From: Bacilli bacterium
GTDB taxonomy: Bacteria; Bacillota_I; Bacilli_A; RFN20; CAG-826
Reading direction: 5' to 3'
Assembly (NCBI GenBank): GCA_024408435.1
Contig: JAKSVA010000001.1
Location: 1 to 56,798, forward strand
DNA length: 56,798 bases
Position 1 is the stretch's first letter, and every line of letters begins with the position of its first letter. Shown here one piece after another: positions 19,753 through 41,891 of the stretch. The notes under the pieces were generated by a model. That model was not told the DNA's origin and searched no databases. It saw only the letters and a program-made list of their open reading frames with translations. The position numbers and the translations under genes were made by a program.

Positions 19753-21048
19753 ATGCTATTTAGAAAAGTTACTAATAATATCGATGAGTGGTATAAAGGC
19801 AAGAAAACTGCTTTATTAATTGATGGCGCTCGACAAGTCGGCAAAACGACCATTATTGAAGAATACCTTAATAAAAACAAGATCGATTATGTTGAATTTA
19901 ACTTAATTGAGAATCAAATAGCGCGTGATGCATTTAATACTTCTATTGATGCAAACGATTTATTACTTAAATTATCCGCTATTTCTAAAAAACCTCTCAA
20001 AAAAGGAAAAACTGTAATATTTATTGATGAGGCCCAAGAACCAAATGATGCCATTACACCGATTAAATTTTTAGTTAAAGAAGGGAGTTATCGTTTTATC
20101 TTTTCTGGTTCGCTATTGGGAGTAAAGATGAAAGATATTCAATCTGCGCCAATTGGATCTATGACAGTAATTAATATGTATCCAATGGATTTTGAAGAAT
20201 TTTTAATTGCTAATTCAACCAATAAAGACACAATAGATTATTTAAAAGAATGTTTTTATAAATTAAAACCAGTCGACAATGATATCCATAGGCAAATAAT
20301 GAATATATTCAATAAATATTTAGTCGTAGGTGGTTTGCCAAAAGCAGTAAGAGAATATGTTGAAACCAACAATATGAGTAAAGTTAGAGACGCTCAGTAT
20401 GATGTTGATAAAGGCTATTTAATGGATGTTGCAAAATATAAAAAGGAAGAGAAATTATTAATTGATGATATATATGAATTAATACCAAGCGAACTAAATG
20501 CCAAAAACAAACGATTCATTATTAAATCACTGGATAAAAAAGCACGATATTATAATTACGAATCAAGCCTTGTTTGGTTTAAAAACAGTGCAATTGGTCT
20601 ATTCACTTACACGGTAGACGAACCAGTATATCCTCTTAGAGCAAGCGTTAAAAGACAATTATTTAAGTTATTTTTGTGTGATACAGGATTACTAGTACAT
20701 AAATTAGCTAAGGATACTGCTGCAAAAATTCTAACCAATCATTTAAATATAAATTATGGAGCTATTTATGAATCGGTTGTTGCCCAAGAATTAACCGCCC
20801 ATGAGATTCCACTATATTATTACAATAATAAAAAACAAGGTGAAGTCGATTTTTTAATTGAAGACGGAGACCAAATCATACCAATAGAAGTAAAAAGTGG
20901 AAAAGATTATGATCGCCATGTAGCGTTAGATAAACTATTAGAAACTAAAAACTATTCTATAGATAGGGCCTACGTATTATGTAACGAAAACATTAAAATT
21001 AAAGAAAAAAAGATATACCTACCGATTTATTTTGTGATGTTTATATGA
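19753..21048 (+). CDS. AAA+ ATPase of the COG1373 type (AAA_14 N-terminal domain, DUF4143-like C-terminal domain)
   Basis: 431 aa. It has Walker A DGARQVGKTT, Walker B VIFIDEAQ, and a C-terminal GEVDFLIEDGDQIIPIEVKSGKDY (a D...E.K nuclease-fold-like motif typical of this family). Confidence 0.8.
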   Translation: MLFRKVTNNIDEWYKGKKTALLIDGARQVGKTTIIEEYLNKNKIDYVEFNLIENQIARDAFNTSIDANDLLLKLSAISKKPLKKGKTVIFIDEAQEPNDAITPIKFLVKEGSYRFIFSGSLLGVKMKDIQSAPIGSMTVINMYPMDFEEFLIANSTNKDTIDYLKECFYKLKPVDNDIHRQIMNIFNKYLVVGGLPKAVREYVETNNMSKVRDAQYDVDKGYLMDVAKYKKEEKLLIDDIYELIPSELNAKNKRFIIKSLDKKARYYNYESSLVWFKNSAIGLFTYTVDEPVYPLRASVKRQLFKLFLCDTGLLVHKLAKDTAAKILTNHLNINYGAIYESVVAQELTAHEIPLYYYNNKKQGEVDFLIEDGDQIIPIEVKSGKDYDRHVALDKLLETKNYSIDRAYVLCNENIKIKEKKIYLPIYFVMFI

Positions 21049-25473: not shown

Positions 25474-25701
25474 CTAAGAGCATAAATACACCTCCGATGT
25501 TTCTTGATTAAGATTTATTTTCCCGAGATAGAATAAACAGTCAAGAACTTCAACAAAATCATTAAAATCCGAAAAATTTCGTTTTACAGACTCATATAGA
25601 TTTGTCAAAGGCAAAGGATTCGATGATAAAAATCCTAAAACAATATTAAACTTACTTATTAAGCTTTCCCTATAAGTAACAACTTTATTTGGTAATTTCA
25701 T
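25474..25701 (-). CDS. ABC-3C middle component (small helical protein)
   Basis: A 75-83-aa ORF lies between the HNH effector and the ATPase. The ATG at 25701 is preceded by AGG and overlaps the HNH gene by 17 nt. Its stop overlaps the ATPase ATG. The assignment rests on size and position. Confidence 0.55.
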   Translation of the reverse strand: MKLPNKVVTYRESLISKFNIVLGFLSSNPLPLTNLYESVKRNFSDFNDFVEVLDCLFYLGKINLNQETSEVYLCS

Positions 25702-26503
25702 TAAAAACCTCGCAATTTTGAACAAAATACGAAACTACTGCTTCGCATGCAGATTTTGAAGAGGATATAACACTAATTTTATTCATTAACCAATTAACCA
25801 TTTCGTTAAAAATCCATTCTAAATCCACCGTCTTTTTTGAGAGGCCTATAAAACAAGATTTAAATTGTGAAGCAATTAAATCAAAATTAACGCCTTTATT
25901 TTCCTCTTCAGAAAAAATATTTTTAATGTAGTAATAATAATTTCTAACATTATCAATAATTTTTTGTTTTAATAGATGGCACGAATCAGGTATTTTATTA
26001 TTTATAGAAATTGGCTTTAATTTCAATTCCTCCAATTGACTACAGTCAATAGTCGAAAGAGCTTTTATAATTTTTTCGATGTCATCTTCCAAATTCATTG
26101 AATTAGATATTTGTTGCAATGTAGCACGCTCAATATATTTTTCCTTTAAACTTACCATCTCCATATATTCTTCTGCGGTTGTTGCTGAATCGTAAGCCGC
26201 ATGGCAATCAAAGCATAAAATTATTAAATTATCCAAAGATTCACTATTGTCGCCTAATCTTTTTAATTTATAAATTCTGCTATAAAAATCAACAGAAGGG
26301 TTGCATGGAAAGATATGCGCAATTTCATACAATTTTACACTTTTAGTTTTTTTCTTTAACGGAACGAGAAGTTTACCACATTTAGGGCAATAAAAATGTA
26401 CTTCATTTAGTAGAATCTTTTCTTCATTGCCTGCTTTATCTTTTCTACCTACTAAATATTTATCGCTTTCTATCAATTTTTTAATTTCTGATGAATCCAT
26501 CAT
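25685..26503 (-). CDS. HNH endonuclease fused to an ABC-3C effector C-terminal domain
   Basis: 272 aa. CPKCGKLL...YEIAHIFP...LDNLIILCFDCHAAYD gives CxxC, H, N and CxxCH of the beta-beta-alpha-metal HNH finger. The C-terminal ~150 aa is helical and ends with ACEAVVSYFVQNCEVF. Confidence 0.75.
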   Translation of the reverse strand: MMDSSEIKKLIESDKYLVGRKDKAGNEEKILLNEVHFYCPKCGKLLVPLKKKTKSVKLYEIAHIFPCNPSVDFYSRIYKLKRLGDNSESLDNLIILCFDCHAAYDSATTAEEYMEMVSLKEKYIERATLQQISNSMNLEDDIEKIIKALSTIDCSQLEELKLKPISINNKIPDSCHLLKQKIIDNVRNYYYYIKNIFSEEENKGVNFDLIASQFKSCFIGLSKKTVDLEWIFNEMVNWLMNKISVISSSKSACEAVVSYFVQNCEVFNEITK

Positions 26504-26626: not shown

Positions 26627-26936
26627 TCTTCTCCCATGATGACAAAGTCATGATAGGTTACATAACTATCTATTAATACACTTATTAACTAAATAATAAT
26701 TATCATTAAATGAATCGATTTACCACTAACCCCCACGTTGTCATAGACAAGGTGGGTACTCTTCTCCCATGATAACGAAGTTAGGATGAGTTAACTAATA
26801 TTATTAATAATGTCTATTAACTAAGAAATATATTATTCCCACTAACTAAAGTTATTTATTACTAACAAACATCTTGTTGTGGCAACAAGAGGATGGACAA
26901 TTCACTCCACGATGTCAAAGACAGGGTGGACCCGGT
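26627..26936 (+). repeat. Two tandem units (133 and ~177 bp) of an imperfect-hairpin repeat family, junction copy 1
   Basis: Both units begin TCTTCTCCCATGAT (26627 and 26760). Hairpins are CCCATGATGAC-AAA-GTCATGATAGG (26633..26657), CCCACGTTGTC-ATA-GACAAGGTGGG (26732..26756), TCTTGTTG-TGGC-CAACAAGA (26872..26891) and CCACGATGTC-AAA-GACAGGGTGG (26907..26929). Confidence 0.8.
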
Positions 26937-27141
26937 TTTTATACTAACTTATCTTTTCAAATTTCTATTCTATTGCAAAATAGTTTCGGAGATTTTTACT
27001 CCATTTTACACGGTTCATTATCATATTTACTTGCATTTTAATGATCACCTACTCAAACTTATTTTGATTAATCTAAATGTAAATGATAGTATCACCAAAA
27101 TAGTTTAAAAAAGAGTAATAAAATATGCTAATATATTAAGT

Positions 27142-35523: not shown

Positions 35524-36330
35524 TTACTTCACTGATTTTTTATATCTTTTCCCAAAAAACTTAGCTCTTAAATAATTAATGCCTTTGCGGAGTTTTGCAA
35601 ACGCAATTAATTCAAGATACCCAACCTCTTTATATTTAATATTATTATGTCTTAGATAGATATCTAACATTAGTTCAGATACACTACCCATATAACGTTT
35701 TTCATAATCACTCCAAGTTGAAGAATCAATCTTATTTTCAATTGCACCTAATACATCAAATAACCATGGTAGATATTTATCTAGGAATGTTTTATTTGCA
35801 ATTAACATATTAAACATATGCGCGGATCTTCTTTTTCTTAAATTATTAAATTCTTTAAGATATTCAGGATATTTATCTTTAATTACTTCTTCTGCAGCTT
35901 TTAGTGGTTCAGGTCTAAGTGTACGACAATAATGATCATAAAGTGTCTCAATAATGTAATAACGTTTCTTAGGCACGATAATATCGTAATTAGATAAGAT
36001 AGACTTGCACTCTTCTTCACTTATAACATGAACAGTTTTATCATCTGCGGATATTCTTAATCTACCTTTAAAGTATCTCCGGTAATGCGCTAAACCTAAA
36101 AAATCATAATCTAAATGCTTCCATCCCCAATATAATGCAGTTAATTCTGAATAATAAGGATTCTTATCAGAGATATTATCTCCTTCATCATCACGAGCGA
36201 TACCAAAACTAGGTTTATTAACCGCTCCAGCCTGAATAAGTTTATAAAAACTATTCGCATATAAAGTAAATGGAATATGAGTACAAACTAAGATTGTGTT
36301 CTTTTTATCCATAAGATAATTATATAGCAT
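35524..36330 (-). CDS. DUF4422-type putative glycosyltransferase
   Basis: ILVCTHIPF, YYSELTALYWGWKH and DFLGLAHYRRYF are characteristic of DUF4422 proteins in polysaccharide loci. The start could instead be the ATG at 36312. Confidence 0.7.
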   Translation of the reverse strand: MLYNYLMDKKNTILVCTHIPFTLYANSFYKLIQAGAVNKPSFGIARDDEGDNISDKNPYYSELTALYWGWKHLDYDFLGLAHYRRYFKGRLRISADDKTVHVISEEECKSILSNYDIIVPKKRYYIIETLYDHYCRTLRPEPLKAAEEVIKDKYPEYLKEFNNLRKRRSAHMFNMLIANKTFLDKYLPWLFDVLGAIENKIDSSTWSDYEKRYMGSVSELMLDIYLRHNNIKYKEVGYLELIAFAKLRKGINYLRAKFFGKRYKKSVK

Positions 36331-36359
36331 ATTCCGCTAATTAATAATGAATGAGGAGG

Positions 36360-36558
36360 GCGGGTCCACCCTGTCATTGACATCGTGGACAGGGGATGGA
36401 TACCCTCTTGTTGACACAATAGGGTATGGCTATGATATAAGTTTCTTTATTATTATCATTTAGTTAATATAAATATATTAATAGATAGTATATAACCCAT
36501 CATGACTTTGTCATCATGGGGGAAAGCTTCCACCTTGTCTAAACGACAACGTGGGAAT
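36360..36558 (-). repeat. Imperfect-hairpin repeat family, junction copy 2 (inverted relative to 26731..26936)
   Basis: The reverse complement of 36361..36388 matches 26907..26934 at 27/28. The reverse complement of 36496..36520 matches 26633..26657 at 24/25. The reverse complement of 36530..36555 has the same arms as 26732..26756 but a different loop. Confidence 0.8.
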
Positions 36559-36635
36559 GGATAATACGTTTTTGTTATAAGTGAATATATATTGAGTTCG
36601 TTATTACGATTGCTTGTTATATAATAATATATAGA

Positions 36636-37067
36636 ATGAAAAAATTAATAAAATTTATTAATAAACATTTTTCTAGTTTAATTCGACTTATTAAAGAAAT
36701 TTTTTGTGGCTTTGTTGCATCGGCGGTTTTTGCGTTGTTCAGTTGGTTAACAACGTTAATAAATCCTCTAAAAGATTATCCGATTATAAGCGCGATTTCT
36801 ACTTGGACGTCAATTGTTATATTATTGTTATTTTCGTTATACGGCATTACCGATTATATTTTTAATGTGACTCCCGCCTTAGTGAAATCTTTTAGAAATA
36901 TGAAAAGAAAAGTTCGCAAGAAAAATAAGATTGACTATTTTAATGGAAATCCAGACGCTTTACCTGGATCTAGTGGAAAACCATTTGAGGATATTATTGA
37001 TGATTTAGAAAAAATGGATATCGATGATCCAAAAAATAAAGTAGGAGGCGACGACAATGAAGATTGA
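36636..37067 (+). CDS. Small membrane protein (2-3 TM, acidic C-terminal tail), first gene of the DGQHR cluster
   Basis: 143 aa with hydrophobic segments at about residues 20-45 and 50-75. The C-terminus is DIIDDLEKMDIDDPKNKVGGDDNED. Its 3' end contains the GGAGG RBS of the next gene and overlaps it by 11 nt. Confidence 0.6.
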   Translation: MKKLIKFINKHFSSLIRLIKEIFCGFVASAVFALFSWLTTLINPLKDYPIISAISTWTSIVILLLFSLYGITDYIFNVTPALVKSFRNMKRKVRKKNKIDYFNGNPDALPGSSGKPFEDIIDDLEKMDIDDPKNKVGGDDNED

Positions 37068-38205
37068 AGTAATTAGAATTACTCAACAAGGCAATGTTTT
37101 TTATGTAGGAAAAATGAAGGCTGCAAATCTTGTAAAAATTGCTACAACAAAAATTAGGCGGCCTAAAACGCATGACCAATACAAGACTTTTTTACAAGAA
37201 ATAGATGAAATTGTTAACAAAGAAATAGCTCAAGGTGATGTTTGGTATCTGAGGGAATTCGAACGAGATGCCAACATACAGAGAAAGGAGAGCAAAAAAA
37301 GATTAATAGAAATCGGGAAAGACATAGAAAAAATCAATAATATTTTCCCAAATGCTATTATTTGCAATATTTCACCTTTAGATGAATGCAATGGCGATGA
37401 AATAGTGAAAATTAGTGAAAACGGCACTGTTTTAGAATTTGATGAAAATAAAGTAGAATTTAGTATTATAGACGGCCAACATAGACTAGGCGGTTTTAAT
37501 TATACAAGTGATGTACAAAAATATTTGAATGATTACGATCTCGTTGTCTCCATAATGATAGGTTTAAAACCAGCACAACAAGCAGAATTATTTGCCACTA
37601 TAAACGGAAAACAGAAACCTGTAAACAAATCTATTTTATATGATTTGTCTGCTATGTCGAAAGATGAATATACTGAACAAGTTTTAGCCCATTTAATTAC
37701 TACCTGGCTCAATATGCATGAACAATCACCTTTATATAGAAAAATCAAAATGCTTGGTTCTGGGGAGGGTACCATTTCACAAGCTGCCATGATTGATGCT
37801 ATTCAGCCTCTTTTTTCTGATAGAAATTATCGTTCATCGTTTGATGCTCCAGTTTTACGCGAACTATATTTAAAACATGATATAAAAGGCATAGTGCAAA
37901 TCATATATGACTATTTATCAATTTTTATAACTTATTTTGGATGTAAAGAATTTGATCATCCGATTTATATGAAATCTACTGGCATCGGTGGTTTATTAAA
38001 AGCTTTTCCAACTCTATATTCTGAATTCTATGATAAGACTAAGACTCGAACCGAAAACATTTCAATTCTTAAATCAAAAATGTACACTGTTCTTGAGCAT
38101 TTTGTACCAACTTCTAATAAATACCCAGGCGGAGGTGCTTCTGTTCAAAAACGTTTCGCTGAAGATTTAATCGCGTTGTTGTGTTCTAACTCAAATGTCG
38201 TTTGA
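37057..38205 (+). CDS. DGQHR-domain protein (DndB-like, ParB/Srx-fold superfamily)
   Basis: 382 aa. It has the literal motif FSIIDGQHRLGGF, plus upstream IQRKESKKRL...FPNAIICN and downstream QAELFATINGKQKPVNKSILYDL, as in DndB-like proteins. Confidence 0.8.
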   Translation: MKIEVIRITQQGNVFYVGKMKAANLVKIATTKIRRPKTHDQYKTFLQEIDEIVNKEIAQGDVWYLREFERDANIQRKESKKRLIEIGKDIEKINNIFPNAIICNISPLDECNGDEIVKISENGTVLEFDENKVEFSIIDGQHRLGGFNYTSDVQKYLNDYDLVVSIMIGLKPAQQAELFATINGKQKPVNKSILYDLSAMSKDEYTEQVLAHLITTWLNMHEQSPLYRKIKMLGSGEGTISQAAMIDAIQPLFSDRNYRSSFDAPVLRELYLKHDIKGIVQIIYDYLSIFITYFGCKEFDHPIYMKSTGIGGLLKAFPTLYSEFYDKTKTRTENISILKSKMYTVLEHFVPTSNKYPGGGASVQKRFAEDLIALLCSNSNVV

Positions 38206-38301
38206 GTATCTTCTCTAATGTAGAACATCGATTTGAATGAGAGAGGGATGCACATTCACTACGCAAAATAAGCAAGCTATCATATGAAGTAGGAGAACAT
38301 T

Positions 38302-39456
38302 ATGGGCATTGTACTGAAAGATAAAATGACTAGAACAAATTTGTTGAATAAGACAAAAGATTTTATTCTTGTTTTAAATTCAAATTTAAACACTAAAAAA
38401 GAAACAAAACCATACGAAACAAAAGTTTTCTTTGAAACTGTTGATTTCATTGATTTAGAAATAAAACGAATTAATAAATTTGAATTTGATAAATTTGAAT
38501 CATTCAATGAACAGTATAAGAAATATTATGAAACCAGATTTCTTAATATCGAAAGCACATGTTATCTTATCTTAAATATGAATAAGCAAACAAACATTTC
38601 AGTTATAATTAATTGCCTTAATAATTTGAAAAATGCTATAGGTATTGATTCAAATTATTCTTTATTTGAAAAATTTAGATATGGTAATTCTAATTATGTT
38701 TTGTTTGGAAAAAACGGCGCTGGTAAAACTACTCTTTTAAAATATCTTAGAATCAACCTGATTAATTCTAATGTACATTTTGCTCAAGCGGCTAGAAATG
38801 TTAACTACTCTATAGATAATGCGTGGTACAATCCTTTTCAAAACAATTTAGATAACGTCTTAAATGGGGTAGAAGATAATAAAGCTATGTTGCTTTTATC
38901 ACTTTGCATGTTGAAGCAAGAGAGACGTGAATTGGAAGGCGGAATAGAAAGCGAAAACACTATATTAAATAAATTTTGTAAGATGTTTAATTCGTTAGGT
39001 CTTGATAGAAACATCGAGATTAATGAAAAAGATGAATTAAAGCTTGTTCCTCCGGGTGAAAATAGCTACTCTTTTTCTAATGCATCTGATGGCGAAAAAA
39101 CGATTGCTTATTTTATAATGCTTACACTTTTGGCAGCAAAAAATTCTTTCATATTTATTGATGAGCCTGAAAACCATTTAAATGGTTCATTAATGATCAA
39201 ATTGTTTGACTTACTTGAATCAAGTCGACAAGATGTTAAGTTCGTTTATTCAACTCATAATATAAATTTTGTAAAAAGCAGAAACAATTGTGAACTCGTA
39301 TATTTGCAAAAAACATCTAAATTAAATCATTGGGAATTTAAAACAATTTCTATGATTAACGATTTACCCTACAATGTAATCTTAAATATTGAAGGAACCA
39401 ATGATAATGTTTTGCTGTGTGAAGGCACAACTCTTCTTATGATGAACAATTACTAA
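38302..39456 (+). CDS. ABC-like (AAA_15/21-type) ATPase with a ~130-aa N-terminal extension; its C-terminus carries the first Toprim motif
   Basis: It has Walker A FGKNGAGKTTLLKYL, a signature-like ASDGEKT and Walker B FIFIDEPENHL. The last residues NVLLCEGTT resemble the (V/L)EG start of a Toprim/DUF4435 domain. An AGGAG RBS is present. Confidence 0.75.
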   Translation: MGIVLKDKMTRTNLLNKTKDFILVLNSNLNTKKETKPYETKVFFETVDFIDLEIKRINKFEFDKFESFNEQYKKYYETRFLNIESTCYLILNMNKQTNISVIINCLNNLKNAIGIDSNYSLFEKFRYGNSNYVLFGKNGAGKTTLLKYLRINLINSNVHFAQAARNVNYSIDNAWYNPFQNNLDNVLNGVEDNKAMLLLSLCMLKQERRELEGGIESENTILNKFCKMFNSLGLDRNIEINEKDELKLVPPGENSYSFSNASDGEKTIAYFIMLTLLAAKNSFIFIDEPENHLNGSLMIKLFDLLESSRQDVKFVYSTHNINFVKSRNNCELVYLQKTSKLNHWEFKTISMINDLPYNVILNIEGTNDNVLLCEGTTLLMMNNY

Positions 39457-39473
39457 CGGTCCTTTATCCAAAT

Positions 39474-40142
39474 TTGAAAGTTATATCTAGTGATGGGTGC
39501 GATAGAGTAATTAATACAACAAAAACTATTAATTTTTATTCGAGCGAATTAAGAAAAAAGGCTTTTGGAATTATTGACAATGATTTCAGAGAACATGATG
39601 ATATAGTTGCCCTAAGGGAAGATAATATTTTTGTACTTCCTTACAACGAAATTGAAAATATGTTTTTACTCGAGCCTTGTTTGGCTTTAATGAAAAAACA
39701 TTTGTTTGTAGATAGTGCTATTGATAATATCAAGTTTTCTATTATAAAAATTATTGAAAGCAAGAAAAAACATATACTAAGTGATTTTGCTTCAAAAACT
39801 ATTAGAACTATATATAAACGAAATAAGTTAGATGATATTAATCATTTAGAAGAATCTCTAAATAGTTTAAATACTAAAAATAATGGAATATTTTTAGCAA
39901 AATATTCATCATTTAAGAATGCGCTAGATCAAAATATTATATTAAACAATTATGATAGTTTAATGAAACTAGTTCCTGGAAAAATGATTATTGCTGATAT
40001 TGCTGCCATTTACAAAATGTCTGATGCGAAAAGTTACATTAAATTGCTACTTAGTAAATTAAGATTCGATGAAGCTTTGAAAGAAAAATTAAGGTCTTTT
40101 GTCGATATACCCAATATTTTCAAACCGAAGCAATTATCTTAA
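39474..40142 (+). CDS. DUF4435/Toprim-like domain protein (OLD/AriB-like), probably the frameshifted continuation of the upstream ATPase
   Basis: GIIDNDFREHDD gives the Toprim DxD. The frame is open back to 39423 (RHNSSYDEQLLTVLYPNLKV...). The track start is TTG with no RBS. Confidence 0.6.
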   Translation: MKVISSDGCDRVINTTKTINFYSSELRKKAFGIIDNDFREHDDIVALREDNIFVLPYNEIENMFLLEPCLALMKKHLFVDSAIDNIKFSIIKIIESKKKHILSDFASKTIRTIYKRNKLDDINHLEESLNSLNTKNNGIFLAKYSSFKNALDQNIILNNYDSLMKLVPGKMIIADIAAIYKMSDAKSYIKLLLSKLRFDEALKEKLRSFVDIPNIFKPKQLS

Positions 40143-40148
40143 GTTTTC

Positions 40149-40892
40149 TTAATGTCCGCTTTTATCTTCATTGCGTTTAATGAATTCAGGATCTTTAGTG
40201 GCTTCTAACATTCCTTTTCTATATTCATCATTTCTAATGTTATGCTTATAAATCATTAATTCAGTTAAGGTTGCGTAGATAAGTTTTCTTTTAGTGCTTG
40301 TATAATATTTTGTATAACATAGTAATTTCTCAATATCTATATGATATTTCTTAAGTAAATTACATAATATGATTTTATATTCTTTATCATCTACATCTAT
40401 GTTAGCGTCATATTTATTTGAAATTACATCAAGAAACATAAAATATTTATAATTCTCATTATTAATTTTTAATGGAGGTTTTATTAATGTAAGGTCCTTA
40501 GTGTTTCTTAATAAAGTTGTTCGATAATTATTAGTGACAATATACATTTTAGTAGACATTTGAGTGGATAATCCTAATTGGTTAATAAGACCAGGACCAG
40601 TCTCATATCCAATTCTTTCACCTTTTTTGTTAACTATGCATAGACGAGATATTAATTCGAATTCATTAATGCCGGTTTTACCAAATGGAGTATCAACGCT
40701 TTTATAAAAGATACCTTTTTGATATCTATTAATATTATCGTTTTGATCAATATAACGACTAATGTATTCCATAACTACATCATAAGGAATCGTTTCATGT
40801 GAATTTACATAGTCATATACATCTTTTGAAAAGATTGGTTTACTAGTTCCTTGCTTATTAATGTATTTCTTAATATTTCTCATTACATCCAT
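40149..40892 (-). CDS. AbiEi-like / DUF6088-type putative antitoxin-transcriptional regulator
   Basis: 247 aa. RYQKGIFYKSVDTPFGKTGINEFELI and GYETGPGLINQLGLSTQMSTKMYIVTNN resemble DUF6088/AbiEi_4 proteins. The C-terminal tail matches the small ORF at 19477. Confidence 0.55.
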   Translation of the reverse strand: MDVMRNIKKYINKQGTSKPIFSKDVYDYVNSHETIPYDVVMEYISRYIDQNDNINRYQKGIFYKSVDTPFGKTGINEFELISRLCIVNKKGERIGYETGPGLINQLGLSTQMSTKMYIVTNNYRTTLLRNTKDLTLIKPPLKINNENYKYFMFLDVISNKYDANIDVDDKEYKIILCNLLKKYHIDIEKLLCYTKYYTSTKRKLIYATLTELMIYKHNIRNDEYRKGMLEATKDPEFIKRNEDKSGH

Positions 40893-41048
40893 ATGTTATA
40901 TTATTGTAATTATTTTATATAATATTTCAACAAAAACATAATTTTGTGTATTGACTTTACTATGTAATCAATTTAATATAGTGATACAGAGCCCACCACG
41001 CATAAGGCACATTCGTGTGTACTGCGAACCAGGGTGGGACATTTTATT

Positions 41049-41891
41049 ATGAAGTTACCATTGATTTTATCTGATTATCCAAATTTATCCGTTGATGACA
41101 TCAACAAGGTTAGCCGTTTTCTTTCTACTAAATGTAGTGAGTATCGTTTTATTGATTTTATGCGTTGCTCAAATGGTAATGTTAAGGATGCTATCGAGTT
41201 CTTTAAATTTGATGATGCGCTAAGAGCACTATTAATTCAATATTTAATTCGTTTTGAGATACAAGTTAAAACCGATTTCATAAAAGAAGTAGAAACCGCA
41301 ACTAGTTCTAATTCATTTTGGGATAATCCTTCGTATTATTTCAAAAGTTCTACCATTCCATATTATCCTGATGGCAAATCAAAGTTTGACAAAATAAAAG
41401 AAGATATAACTCAAAACTTAAAAAGATATGCCTTTAATACACCTGGTCCATCTGATTACCGAGCATTAATGTTTTCTTCTTTTGGCTCGTTCCACAATCT
41501 ATTTAAAAATATAGATCTTCCTTACAAGAAAAAATTTATTGATAGATATACTATAAAGTTACCAGTACATAACTATTATGTATTAAATGGATATTTTTCA
41601 GCTATTCAAGCTATTAGAAATCGATGTGCACACGGAAACCATATTGTTACAATAAAGCTAAAAAATCAATTAAACGCTCATATTAACTTAATTCATAAGA
41701 TGAATTCTCCTATGCCAAAAATAAACATTTCTGTCTTTGATGCGGTTCTTATATTTTTAATAAATGTCCTAAACTGCGGTGGAGAATTTAAAGGCAAATT
41801 AAAGAAGATTATTACCAAATACAGTGGCGTTTTATTTAGATATCCTGGTAACTATGTATTCTCACCAAATATAATAAATAAAATTTTGTAA
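41049..41891 (+). CDS. Abi_2 (AbiD/AbiF-like) family protein, HEPN-type with an Rx4H motif
   Basis: FSAIQAIRNRCAHGNHIV (R-x4-H) and the N-terminal FKFDDALRALLIQYLIRFEIQVKTDF are typical of Abi_2. The ATG at 41049 is preferred over the GTG at 41034. Confidence 0.75.
   Translation: MKLPLILSDYPNLSVDDINKVSRFLSTKCSEYRFIDFMRCSNGNVKDAIEFFKFDDALRALLIQYLIRFEIQVKTDFIKEVETATSSNSFWDNPSYYFKSSTIPYYPDGKSKFDKIKEDITQNLKRYAFNTPGPSDYRALMFSSFGSFHNLFKNIDLPYKKKFIDRYTIKLPVHNYYVLNGYFSAIQAIRNRCAHGNHIVTIKLKNQLNAHINLIHKMNSPMPKINISVFDAVLIFLINVLNCGGEFKGKLKKIITKYSGVLFRYPGNYVFSPNIINKIL

Follow-up and report, generated by a model that had tools for sequence, protein, structure and literature searches.

The window, the whole stretch of DNA analysed here, is a contig of 56,798 nucleotides (nt) from a Bacilli bacterium (GCA_024408435.1, JAKSVA010000001.1), and the subject of this work is a run of four co-directional open reading frames (ORFs) between positions 36,636 and 40,142, which encode a small protein with transmembrane (TM) segments, a protein with a DGQHR domain, and the parts of an ABC-type ATPase with a Toprim nuclease domain. 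A first-pass annotation, made from the sequence without database searches, had proposed that these constitute one new defence configuration, or else a new class of OLD nuclease. Our best explanation, to which a probability of about 0.7 is assigned, is instead that positions 36.3-41.9 kb represent a small islet of defence genes, inserted among genes for surface polysaccharide and composed of independent modules, rather than one four-gene system, such that the TM-DGQHR pair only happens to adjoin a broken PARIS gene. This figure applies to the modular explanation as a whole; the mechanism suggested below for the TM-DGQHR pair is a considerably more tentative proposal.

The TM-DGQHR cassette and its synteny

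The first ORF (36636-37067, + strand), recognised through ORF calling and hydropathy, encodes a membrane protein of 143 amino acids (aa), and the second (37057-38205, + strand) a 382 aa protein matched by the domain models TIGR03187 and Pfam DndB. The two genes share 11 nt (37057-37067), with the GGAGG ribosome-binding site (RBS) of the DGQHR gene found at 37044-37048 (+ strand), 8 nt before the ATG and within the TM gene; a 96-nt spacer (38206-38301) then separates the DGQHR gene from the ATPase ORF. These particulars of the four ORFs, together with the motifs they encode, had all been correctly described from the sequence, and the domains assigned at that stage (a DGQHR protein of ParB fold, a small membrane partner and an OLD/PARIS-like ABC-ATPase-Toprim protein) are borne out by profile scores and fold matches.

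The close clade to which the DGQHR protein belongs comprises 13 distinct loci, counting the window, with the 12 others encoding DGQHR proteins that are 43-64% identical to it. These derive from the Bacillus cereus group (cassette-carrying genome GCA_007666385.1; pair at L019 6582-8221), Clostridium butyricum (GCA_043845825.1), Agathobacter, and gut and other metagenomes. At all 13, the DGQHR start is abutted or overlapped by a small ORF with two TM segments (four at loci L026 and L126), the distance between the end of this ORF and that start being -11 to +11 nt, and the ORF encodes an acidic tail together with an LPG(K/R/N)(S/T)G motif. The TM and DGQHR genes are a conserved, obligate and translationally coupled two-gene cassette. 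Hence the part of the original proposal that joined these two proteins as a unit stands, whereas the inclusion of the ATPase-Toprim protein in the same unit does not, as its adjacency is not conserved.

The proposal that the DGQHR and ATPase-Toprim proteins form one new configuration had itself named shared synteny in other genomes as its test, and it is on this point that it fails. The ATPase-Toprim gene is of a type here termed AriAB, and no AriAB-like gene was found in the flanks of the 12 other close-clade loci, ten of which include sequence downstream of the DGQHR gene. A tblastn search of the repaired AriAB sequence against 119 sequences with a DGQHR match returned the window only, and a hidden Markov model (HMM) of the AriAB family identified no AriAB besides that of the window in approximately 115 DGQHR-containing loci (6,061 ORFs). 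In the reverse direction, none of the three AriAB homologue loci had a DGQHR gene. The position downstream of the DGQHR gene is occupied differently at every locus, never by an AriAB-like gene: the occupants include unknown ORFs of small size, genes for an HTH_3 protein, for a DUF6462 protein (with an integrase after it) and for an AAA protein (with a subtilase after it), and an aminotransferase gene on the opposite strand.

A ParB-fold protein beside an OLD-type ABC ATPase is not, as had been supposed, an undescribed combination, for the Menshen system consists of NsnA (ParB-DUF262 with a ParB-associated DNA-binding domain, 'ParBDB'), NsnB (an OLD-type ABC ATPase) and the effector NsnC (PMC12065111). 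The locus in the window resembles it in placing a putative DNA sensor of the ParB superfamily, with a helical C-terminal domain, next to an OLD-type ABC ATPase-nuclease within a defence island. If the TM, DGQHR and ATPase-Toprim genes were one Menshen-like system, comprising a ParB-fold sensor, an OLD-type transducer, a Toprim effector and a membrane partner, this precedent would be apt, as would the adjacency of the genes, their common direction and the shortness of the 96-nt gap between them. However, in Menshen terms the sensor here is of the DGQHR rather than the DUF262 type, its partner is a membrane protein, and both the DUF3696 of NsnB and NsnC itself are absent; PADLOC models of NsnA and NsnC were unmatched in the window, and that of NsnB matched at just 3.5e-9, on the generic ATPase core. 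Furthermore, the AriAB gene is frameshifted whilst the TM-DGQHR pair is intact, and AriAB has its own RBS. A promoter and terminator scan of positions 36250-41100 found sites no commoner than in shuffled sequence, and is uninformative as to a separate AriAB promoter.

What weighs against the modular reading is that ATPases of this general kind do occur near the cassette elsewhere. At one close-clade locus, an OLD-family gene (L035 491-2518; AAA_15 with an OLD-like TOPRIM, 676 aa) is found 0.9 kb upstream, such that two of the 13 loci, this and the window with its AriAB, have an ATPase-Toprim gene close to the cassette; at the distant locus L039, an SMC_N/AAA_21 ATPase is encoded upstream of the DGQHR pair. 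The cassette may therefore have a loose functional affinity with ABC ATPases. We read these instances as co-location within islands, because the ATPases belong to different families, lie on the opposite side of the cassette and are common island genes. ABC-ATPase nucleases are among the commonest genes of defence islands. With no instance of the AriAB-DGQHR arrangement recurring, a single Menshen-like system is the least probable of the readings weighed here, and is held at very long odds.

An exhaustive profile search for DGQHR proteins found 2,919 representatives at E<=1e-3, with 400 still matched at 1e-30, within which the close clade is small: only three representatives (at 50% clustering) scored above 460 bits, one of these being partial, with a graded series below them. 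A scan of genome contigs yielded a single close relative, from Agathobacter, and a single remnant, from Anaeroplasma, the other DGQHR genes being distant. The remnant, in Anaeroplasma bactoclasticum ATCC 27112 (L002 7977-8252), is a 91 aa DGQHR fragment with 46% identity over aa 97-176 and no upstream partner, and is a decayed copy. At another locus, the TM partner of a DGQHR gene with 54% identity contains an in-frame TGA codon (L034 4330-4813; ...GDVW*LIDAS...); read through, it is a normal two-TM protein, and the cause is either use of genetic code 4 or pseudogenisation.

The pairing extends to distant DGQHR proteins with 24-32% identity (L038, L039, L040, L041, L042 and L092/L093), which likewise have a 2-4-TM ORF upstream, the start and stop codons overlapping by 1-4 nt in five of the six cases and being separated by a 4-nt gap in L041; other DGQHR clades have upstream partners of quite different kinds. 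A pair of the L092 type is present in three of 5,426 complete Escherichia coli genomes, in a P2-like prophage, with the tail-fibre-assembly gene on one side and the tail-sheath gene on the other, a position which we take to be the Z/fun moron site of P2. It is composed of a four-TM protein of 199 aa and a DGQHR protein of 349 aa, with an ATGA overlap (L124 9010-10655, equivalent to NZ_CP123325.1 23066-24711; also L092 and L093), and these are annotated as 'hypothetical protein' and 'DGQHR domain-containing protein'. This prophage pair represents an experimentally tractable analogue of the cassette. The L041 gene (24% identity) is part of a tightly packed five-gene operon (L041 2113-9191), in the order unknown 561 aa gene, four-TM 170 aa gene, DGQHR gene, HATPase_c_3 gene (522 aa) and unknown 671 aa gene, which may be a larger system built around a TM-DGQHR core.

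The membrane partner has two hydrophobic segments, at approximately aa 21-43 and aa 50-72 as judged from hydropathy. Its N-terminus is rich in K and R, and a basic linker (aa 87-98) follows TM2 ahead of an acidic tail (aa 99-143). As both the N-terminus and the stretch after TM2 are basic, the protein is predicted to be an N-in/C-in hairpin with a cytoplasmic tail. The RNMKRKVRKKNK stretch comes after the TM segments and is succeeded by the strongly acidic tail. Across the partners, the consensus (D/N)xLPG(K/R/N)(S/T)G precedes a helix that is amphipathic and acidic, and the chain ends in acidic residues, FDPEDE for example; the version in the window is DALPGSSGK...DDPKNKVGGDDNED, with alignment of the partners placing the LPGSSGK motif at 36960-36980 (+ strand). 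The last 35 residues have a net charge of -3 to -15 in all 13 partners, whilst the TM portions are barely alignable, leaving the cytoplasmic tail as the sole conserved part. The partner matched no Pfam, PADLOC or PHROG family.

The adjacent AriAB gene

Downstream of the spacer, a fused AriAB (PARIS-type) ABC-ATPase-DUF4435/Toprim gene (38302-40142, + strand), recognised by PADLOC, Pfam and family HMM matches, appears as two ORFs. ORF3 (38302-39456, + strand, 384 aa) corresponds to the ATPase part, with a Walker A motif GKNGAGKT at aa 136, a signature-like SDGEK at aa 262 and a Walker B motif IFIDEPE at aa 284; ORF4 (39474-40142, + strand, 222 aa, with a TTG start) corresponds to the DUF4435 segment. 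Pfam matches across the two were AAA_21 (2.1e-17) and DUF4435 (2.5e-11), and both ORFs match phrog_25246. The Toprim CEG is found near the end of ORF3 (39418-39426, Glu codon 39421-39423), and the Toprim DxD, at 39576-39584, lies in the IIDNDF of ORF4.

Judged from these sequences, ORF3 and ORF4 are one gene. They are in different frames, and that of ORF4 remains open back to the codon following CEG; on the AriAB family profile, ORF3 accounts for positions 36-392 and the ORF4 frame for positions 393-620, without a gap. Intact homologues read FCEG-xx(x)-S(Y/F/L)D at this junction (for instance, CEG-xx(x)-SSYDEQ), spanning the break. When joined, the two make up 613 aa and score 237 bits (8e-71) against the PADLOC fused AriAB model PDLC02982, in keeping with relatives that are single chains of 600-650 aa with AAA_21 and DUF4435; there were 296 matches of this kind among the candidates scored, the best intact one being 54% identical. 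The frame changes from 1 to 3 at 39424-39440 (+ strand), as located by three-frame translation and alignment with homologues. The locus has no intact AriAB frame that would unite the Toprim Glu and DxD in a single polypeptide, and because the break falls between these catalytic residues neither ORF encodes a complete Toprim domain. This copy is probably a pseudogene. Positions 36491-40198 of the window, frameshift included, recur without any difference in an independent assembly from Logan (SRR17543908), so the break is not an artefact of one assembler, and reflects either a real mutation or an error shared at the level of the reads.

PARIS can be encoded by separate ariA and ariB genes or by one fused gene (Rousset et al. 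2022, PMC9122126). The product predicted from the joined ORFs has the PARIS domain combination of an ABC ATPase with a DUF4435 Toprim, including the Walker A and B motifs and the Toprim E...DxD, and so resembles the fused form. It differs from characterised PARIS in being frameshifted within the Toprim domain, in its very remote sequence relationship to the E. coli AriA and AriB of known structure, and in having roughly 130 aa of additional N-terminal sequence. The assignment to PARIS is based on the PADLOC and Pfam models, since against PDB sequences the AriAB profile met E. coli AriA at the level of the P-loop only. An AlphaFold2 (AF2) model of an intact homologue, P0039 (pLDDT 86.9), has the extra region of around 130 aa as helices, and its closest fold is the Thermus scotoductus OLD nuclease 6p74, followed by Gabija GajA, Septu PtuA and Rad50/SMC heads; the first-pass label 'OLD/PARIS-like' is thus apt.

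The same single-chain architecture of ABC ATPase and Toprim is shared by AriAB, OLD nucleases and GajA. However, the AriAB Toprim is of the DUF4435 type, with no match to the OLD-like TOPRIM PF20469; there is no GajB or UvrD partner, and the family HMM misses the OLD gene of L035. The AriAB protein is thus a member of a large existing family, matching the PADLOC fused model, and the alternative suggestion of a new OLD class is not upheld. Intact relatives are presumably PARIS-like in action, in which case an ATPase scaffold would sense a phage trigger, as PARIS does with anti-restriction proteins such as Ocr, and unleash the Toprim nuclease. The locus is a caution that adjacent defence modules in one island, such as a DGQHR cassette and a PARIS gene, need not be a system; this PARIS copy is probably dead.

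The DGQHR protein and possible functions of the cassette

The DGQHR protein scores 134.1 bits against TIGR03187 (cut-off 58.85) and 34.8 bits against Pfam DndB (PF14072; cut-off 29.1), although the latter match is restricted to profile positions 35-163 of 338. The DGQHR pentapeptide (aa 139-143, encoded at 37471-37485 on the + strand), QR (aa 75-76) and F179xxxN183 are invariant in an alignment of 28 sequences, and all three have been listed as hallmarks of the domain (PMC4619093). With these motifs, and with scores over the curated cut-offs, the protein is a member of the DGQHR domain superfamily. A conserved Rx4-6H motif was not found: H142 and H212 are the only invariant histidines, and there is no Arg 4-6 residues before H212.

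It is not, however, DndB or DpdB in the strict sense, as its scores against the equivalog models are far below the cut-offs and it is unaccompanied by modification genes. Against NCBIfam DGQHR_dnd_1 it reaches 128.5 bits (cut-off 450), and against the DpdB model NF041060 55.9 bits (cut-off 300), with the PADLOC DpdB model matching at 8.9e-16; at NCBIfam E<=0.1 the matches were to the generic DGQHR domain, DGQHR_dnd_1 and DpdB, with no DndB-specific equivalog amongst them. DndB is the regulator and ATPase of the dndBCDE phosphorothioation system, and DpdB is part of the 7-deazaguanine Dpd system; both share with the DGQHR protein the three motifs, matches passing Pfam DndB and TIGR03187, and a ParB/Srx-like core with a helical C-terminal domain. 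The protein studied here differs from them in having a coupled membrane partner, its own N-terminal beta-hairpin module, and no dnd or dpd genes nearby in any locus. Linkage to dndCDE and dndA/iscS was found neither in the window nor in the sequence flanking the 12 related DGQHR genes, where no ssp, dpt, pbe or dpd genes were seen either, and dpdA and dpdC-K are likewise missing from the window, which has no other Dpd match. A PADLOC scan of the window, covering 60 non-overlapping ORFs, matched 32 families at E<=1e-8, and Dnd, Ssp, Dpt and Pbe models are absent from the 25 of these that were listed. The first-pass statement that the window lacks dnd, ssp and dpt genes is thereby borne out, and the description of the DGQHR gene as an orphan in relation to dnd and ssp holds for the window and for every related locus examined.

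It could nonetheless be argued that the DGQHR gene serves DNA modification, either as a displaced dndB or dpdB belonging to a cluster at another place in the genome or as an accessory of an adjacent restriction-modification (R-M) system, given that the pentapeptide is the signature of DndB and DpdB. At three of the 13 close-clade loci, DpnII-type R-M genes are found directly upstream of the cassette, co-oriented with it and separated by gaps of 15-97 nt (L024 2026-8218; L026 1973-8194; L126 1-2268), and R-M loci are known to be linked with ParB-like DGQHR and DUF262 genes (PMC3632139). There may be a recurrent functional association between the cassette and GATC-specific R-M. As a general account of the gene this is nevertheless distinctly improbable, considering that ten of the 13 loci, the window included, have no modification genes within 5-8 kb; that the scores for DpdB and DGQHR_dnd_1 fall so far short; that the obligate membrane partner is absent from DndB and DpdB; and that the distant prophage analogue stands alone in its moron site.

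In the AF2 model (pLDDT 75), the DGQHR protein consists of an N-terminal beta-hairpin, an alpha/beta core that is ParB/Srx-like, and seven C-terminal helices spanning approximately aa 200-375. A Foldseek search of the model against the BFVD viral structures gave 14 matches at E<=1e-3, comprising DndB-like 'DNA-sulfur modification-associated' proteins, DUF262/GmrSD N-domains, ParB-like nucleases and AIPR proteins, whilst against the PDB there were weak matches only (E>=0.1), to SspE, the ParB-like CTPase PadC and BrxU. No relevant match emerged from searching PDB sequences with the DGQHR profile, and tblastn of the protein against 50,697 phage records found none. These comparisons point to the ParB/DndB/DUF262 fold class. 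The ParBDB domain has been described for DndB, GmrSD, SspE and NsnA (PMC12065111), and the helical C-terminal domain modelled here fits this description, being presumably DNA-binding.

ParB/DUF262 domains act as nucleoside triphosphate (NTP)-dependent DNA sensors in SspE and GmrSD, and by analogy the DGQHR protein would be an NTP-dependent sensor of foreign DNA. The likeness to GmrSD, SspE and BrxU lies in a ParB/Srx-type NTP-binding domain followed by a helical DNA-binding domain, as well as in their being the top, though weak, PDB fold matches; these proteins are DUF262 sensors fused to DUF1524, whereas the DGQHR protein has no fused nuclease and instead a separate small membrane protein. 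Such coupling of a sensor to a small TM effector, in islands and prophage moron sites, is also seen in Kiwa KwaAB, the two-TM effectors of retrons and CBASS, and the Rst RT-nitrilase-Tm system, although the TM-DGQHR pair has no sequence or domain kinship with any of these. PADLOC v2 has no model for the pair as a system of its own, matching the DGQHR protein to DpdB only and the partners to none, and a literature search found no description of a TM-DGQHR cassette. It is plausible, then, that the pair is a new two-gene defence cassette. More specifically, we give an even chance to its being an autonomous anti-phage or anti-mobile genetic element (MGE) system in which an NTP-dependent DNA sensor of the DndB lineage and ParB/Srx type, no longer tied to DNA modification, is coupled through the acidic LPGK tail to a membrane effector or anchor.

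How such a system might work can be sketched, as a scheme that we regard as possible rather than probable. The acidic tail would hold the membrane protein and the DGQHR protein together in a complex at the membrane, and in the resting state would sit on the DNA-binding surface of the DGQHR protein. DNA of an invading phage or MGE, in combination with the binding or hydrolysis of NTP by the DGQHR protein at its DGQHR site, would displace the tail, and the released membrane protein would then oligomerise and permeabilise the membrane, leading to abortive infection.

Several points tell against this view of the cassette. The AF2 model is only moderately confident, and none of its PDB fold matches is significant. 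A word-index homologue search with the membrane protein of the window returned only itself, so that the partner family is defined by synteny and a short motif. The role of the tail as the interface with the DGQHR protein, and pore formation by the partner, are both putative. Finally, the search for dnd, dpd and ssp genes at the home locus was confined to the window within the metagenome-assembled genome.

The main rival to this scheme, ranked above the other three alternatives, is that the partner is an anchor only, holding at the inner face of the membrane a DGQHR enzyme that would bind, nick or degrade incoming phage or conjugative DNA, or hydrolyse nucleotides, with no cell death involved. 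Osa, a ParB/Srx protein reported to block or nick DNA entering the cell, works at the inner membrane. Proteins of the ParB superfamily with NTPase and nuclease activity are known to act in conflicts, Osa being an example (PMC12065111, PMC10853773), and the Foldseek search of the DGQHR model returned proteins named 'ParB-like nuclease'. The catalytic-type ParB/Srx motifs are moreover invariant, and the variation of the partner in sequence and in TM number (two or four), with the tail alone conserved, is as expected of an anchor. However, unlike GmrSD and SspE with their DUF1524, the DGQHR core has no dedicated nuclease domain; published work describes DndB as an ATPase and a regulator that binds DNA, and not as a nuclease (PMC4507180); and in other defence systems the small TM partners of cytosolic sensors are mostly effectors. 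A tethered enzyme of this kind is considered unlikely. To our knowledge, DGQHR proteins are familiar almost solely as DndB and DpdB, accessories of modification systems with a debated role. Were an autonomous TM-DGQHR system confirmed, a modification-independent DGQHR protein with a membrane partner would make it possible to ask, with just two genes, what this branch of the ParB superfamily detects and how it acts, and a membrane-linked ParB-type module would join the defence repertoire of the Firmicutes, among them gut clostridia and members of the B. cereus group.

Genomic surroundings and other elements of the window

The islet is about 5.8 kb in size and contains the TM-DGQHR cassette, the broken AriAB gene, an AbiEi-like gene (40149-40892, - strand, 247 aa; PADLOC AbiEi 5.5e-34) and an AbiD/Abi_2 gene (41034-41891, + strand, 285 aa; Pfam Abi_2 2.1e-17, PADLOC AbiD 8.8e-20). 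On both sides it is flanked by polysaccharide biosynthesis genes, encoding Caps_synth, DUF4422, GT2, TPP enzyme, pyruvyl transferase and Bac_transf proteins. The AbiEi-like gene and AbiD are neighbours within the islet, outside the cassette. No AbiEii partner for the former was found in the islet, and its 3' side is separated from the 3' end of AriAB by 6 nt; that it runs straight into the end of a pseudogene suggests rearrangement or decay of the islet.

The surroundings of the cassette in relatives are typical for defence genes and mobile islands. Its neighbours include DUF4420/MzaD-like, AIPR, caspase-like and STAND-like genes (L019); a serine recombinase, DUF927 and AIPR (L021); an integrase and a reverse transcriptase, in addition to the R-M genes (L024); and SocA and T5orf172 (L029), whilst in L023 the cassette is again found in a polysaccharide locus. 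PADLOC matches for 78 cassette neighbours were dominated by type II methyltransferase models, and gave no clean measure of enrichment.

The integrases, recombinases or primase-like genes that adjoin several of these loci, along with the ParB fold of the DGQHR domain and the match of the E. coli DGQHR protein to a PHROG named 'ParB-like partition protein', would suit a cassette that serves its carrier mobile element, through ParB-like anchoring or partition at the membrane or the exclusion of rival conjugative transfer, with no anti-phage role. This is very improbable, as the copy in the window is found in a chromosomal polysaccharide locus amongst other Abi genes, in an islet with no recombinase; a ParA-type partner is absent; and, within the ParB superfamily, the branch with DGQHR is tied to conflict systems, not to partition. 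We retain the interpretation of the locus as an islet of separate defence modules.

An Rfam search of the window and of the intergenic region upstream of the cassette gave no match. Three copies of a double-hairpin element of approximately 75 nt, richer in G+C than the AT-rich intergenic DNA around them, were observed at 36355-36430, 36497-36556 and 26880-26960 (the last on the - strand). The consensus is roughly CGGGTCCACCCTGTCxTTGACATCGTGGA...CCTCTTGTTGxCACAAxAxG, and its core pattern has three exact matches where none is expected. The copies are located on the 5' side of the TM-DGQHR cassette and of a gene encoding an HNH_2 nuclease domain with a CTD11 domain, and are oriented as those genes are. 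The element had no Rfam match and was absent from the other fetched loci save L125, an independent assembly of the same region; it could be a repetitive extragenic palindrome (REP)- or miniature inverted-repeat transposable element (MITE)-like element, or a shared regulatory or insertion signature.

Two further genes of the window have domains of defence interest. The HNH_2-CTD11 gene (25685-26503, - strand), the second domain of which is that of ABC-3C conflict systems, stands alone among glycosyltransferase genes. At the start of the low-GC (~28%) polysaccharide region, an ATPase with AAA_14 and DUF4143 domains is encoded at 19753-21048 (+ strand), and is matched at 2.7e-172 by PDC-S01, which PADLOC lists as a candidate single-gene system.

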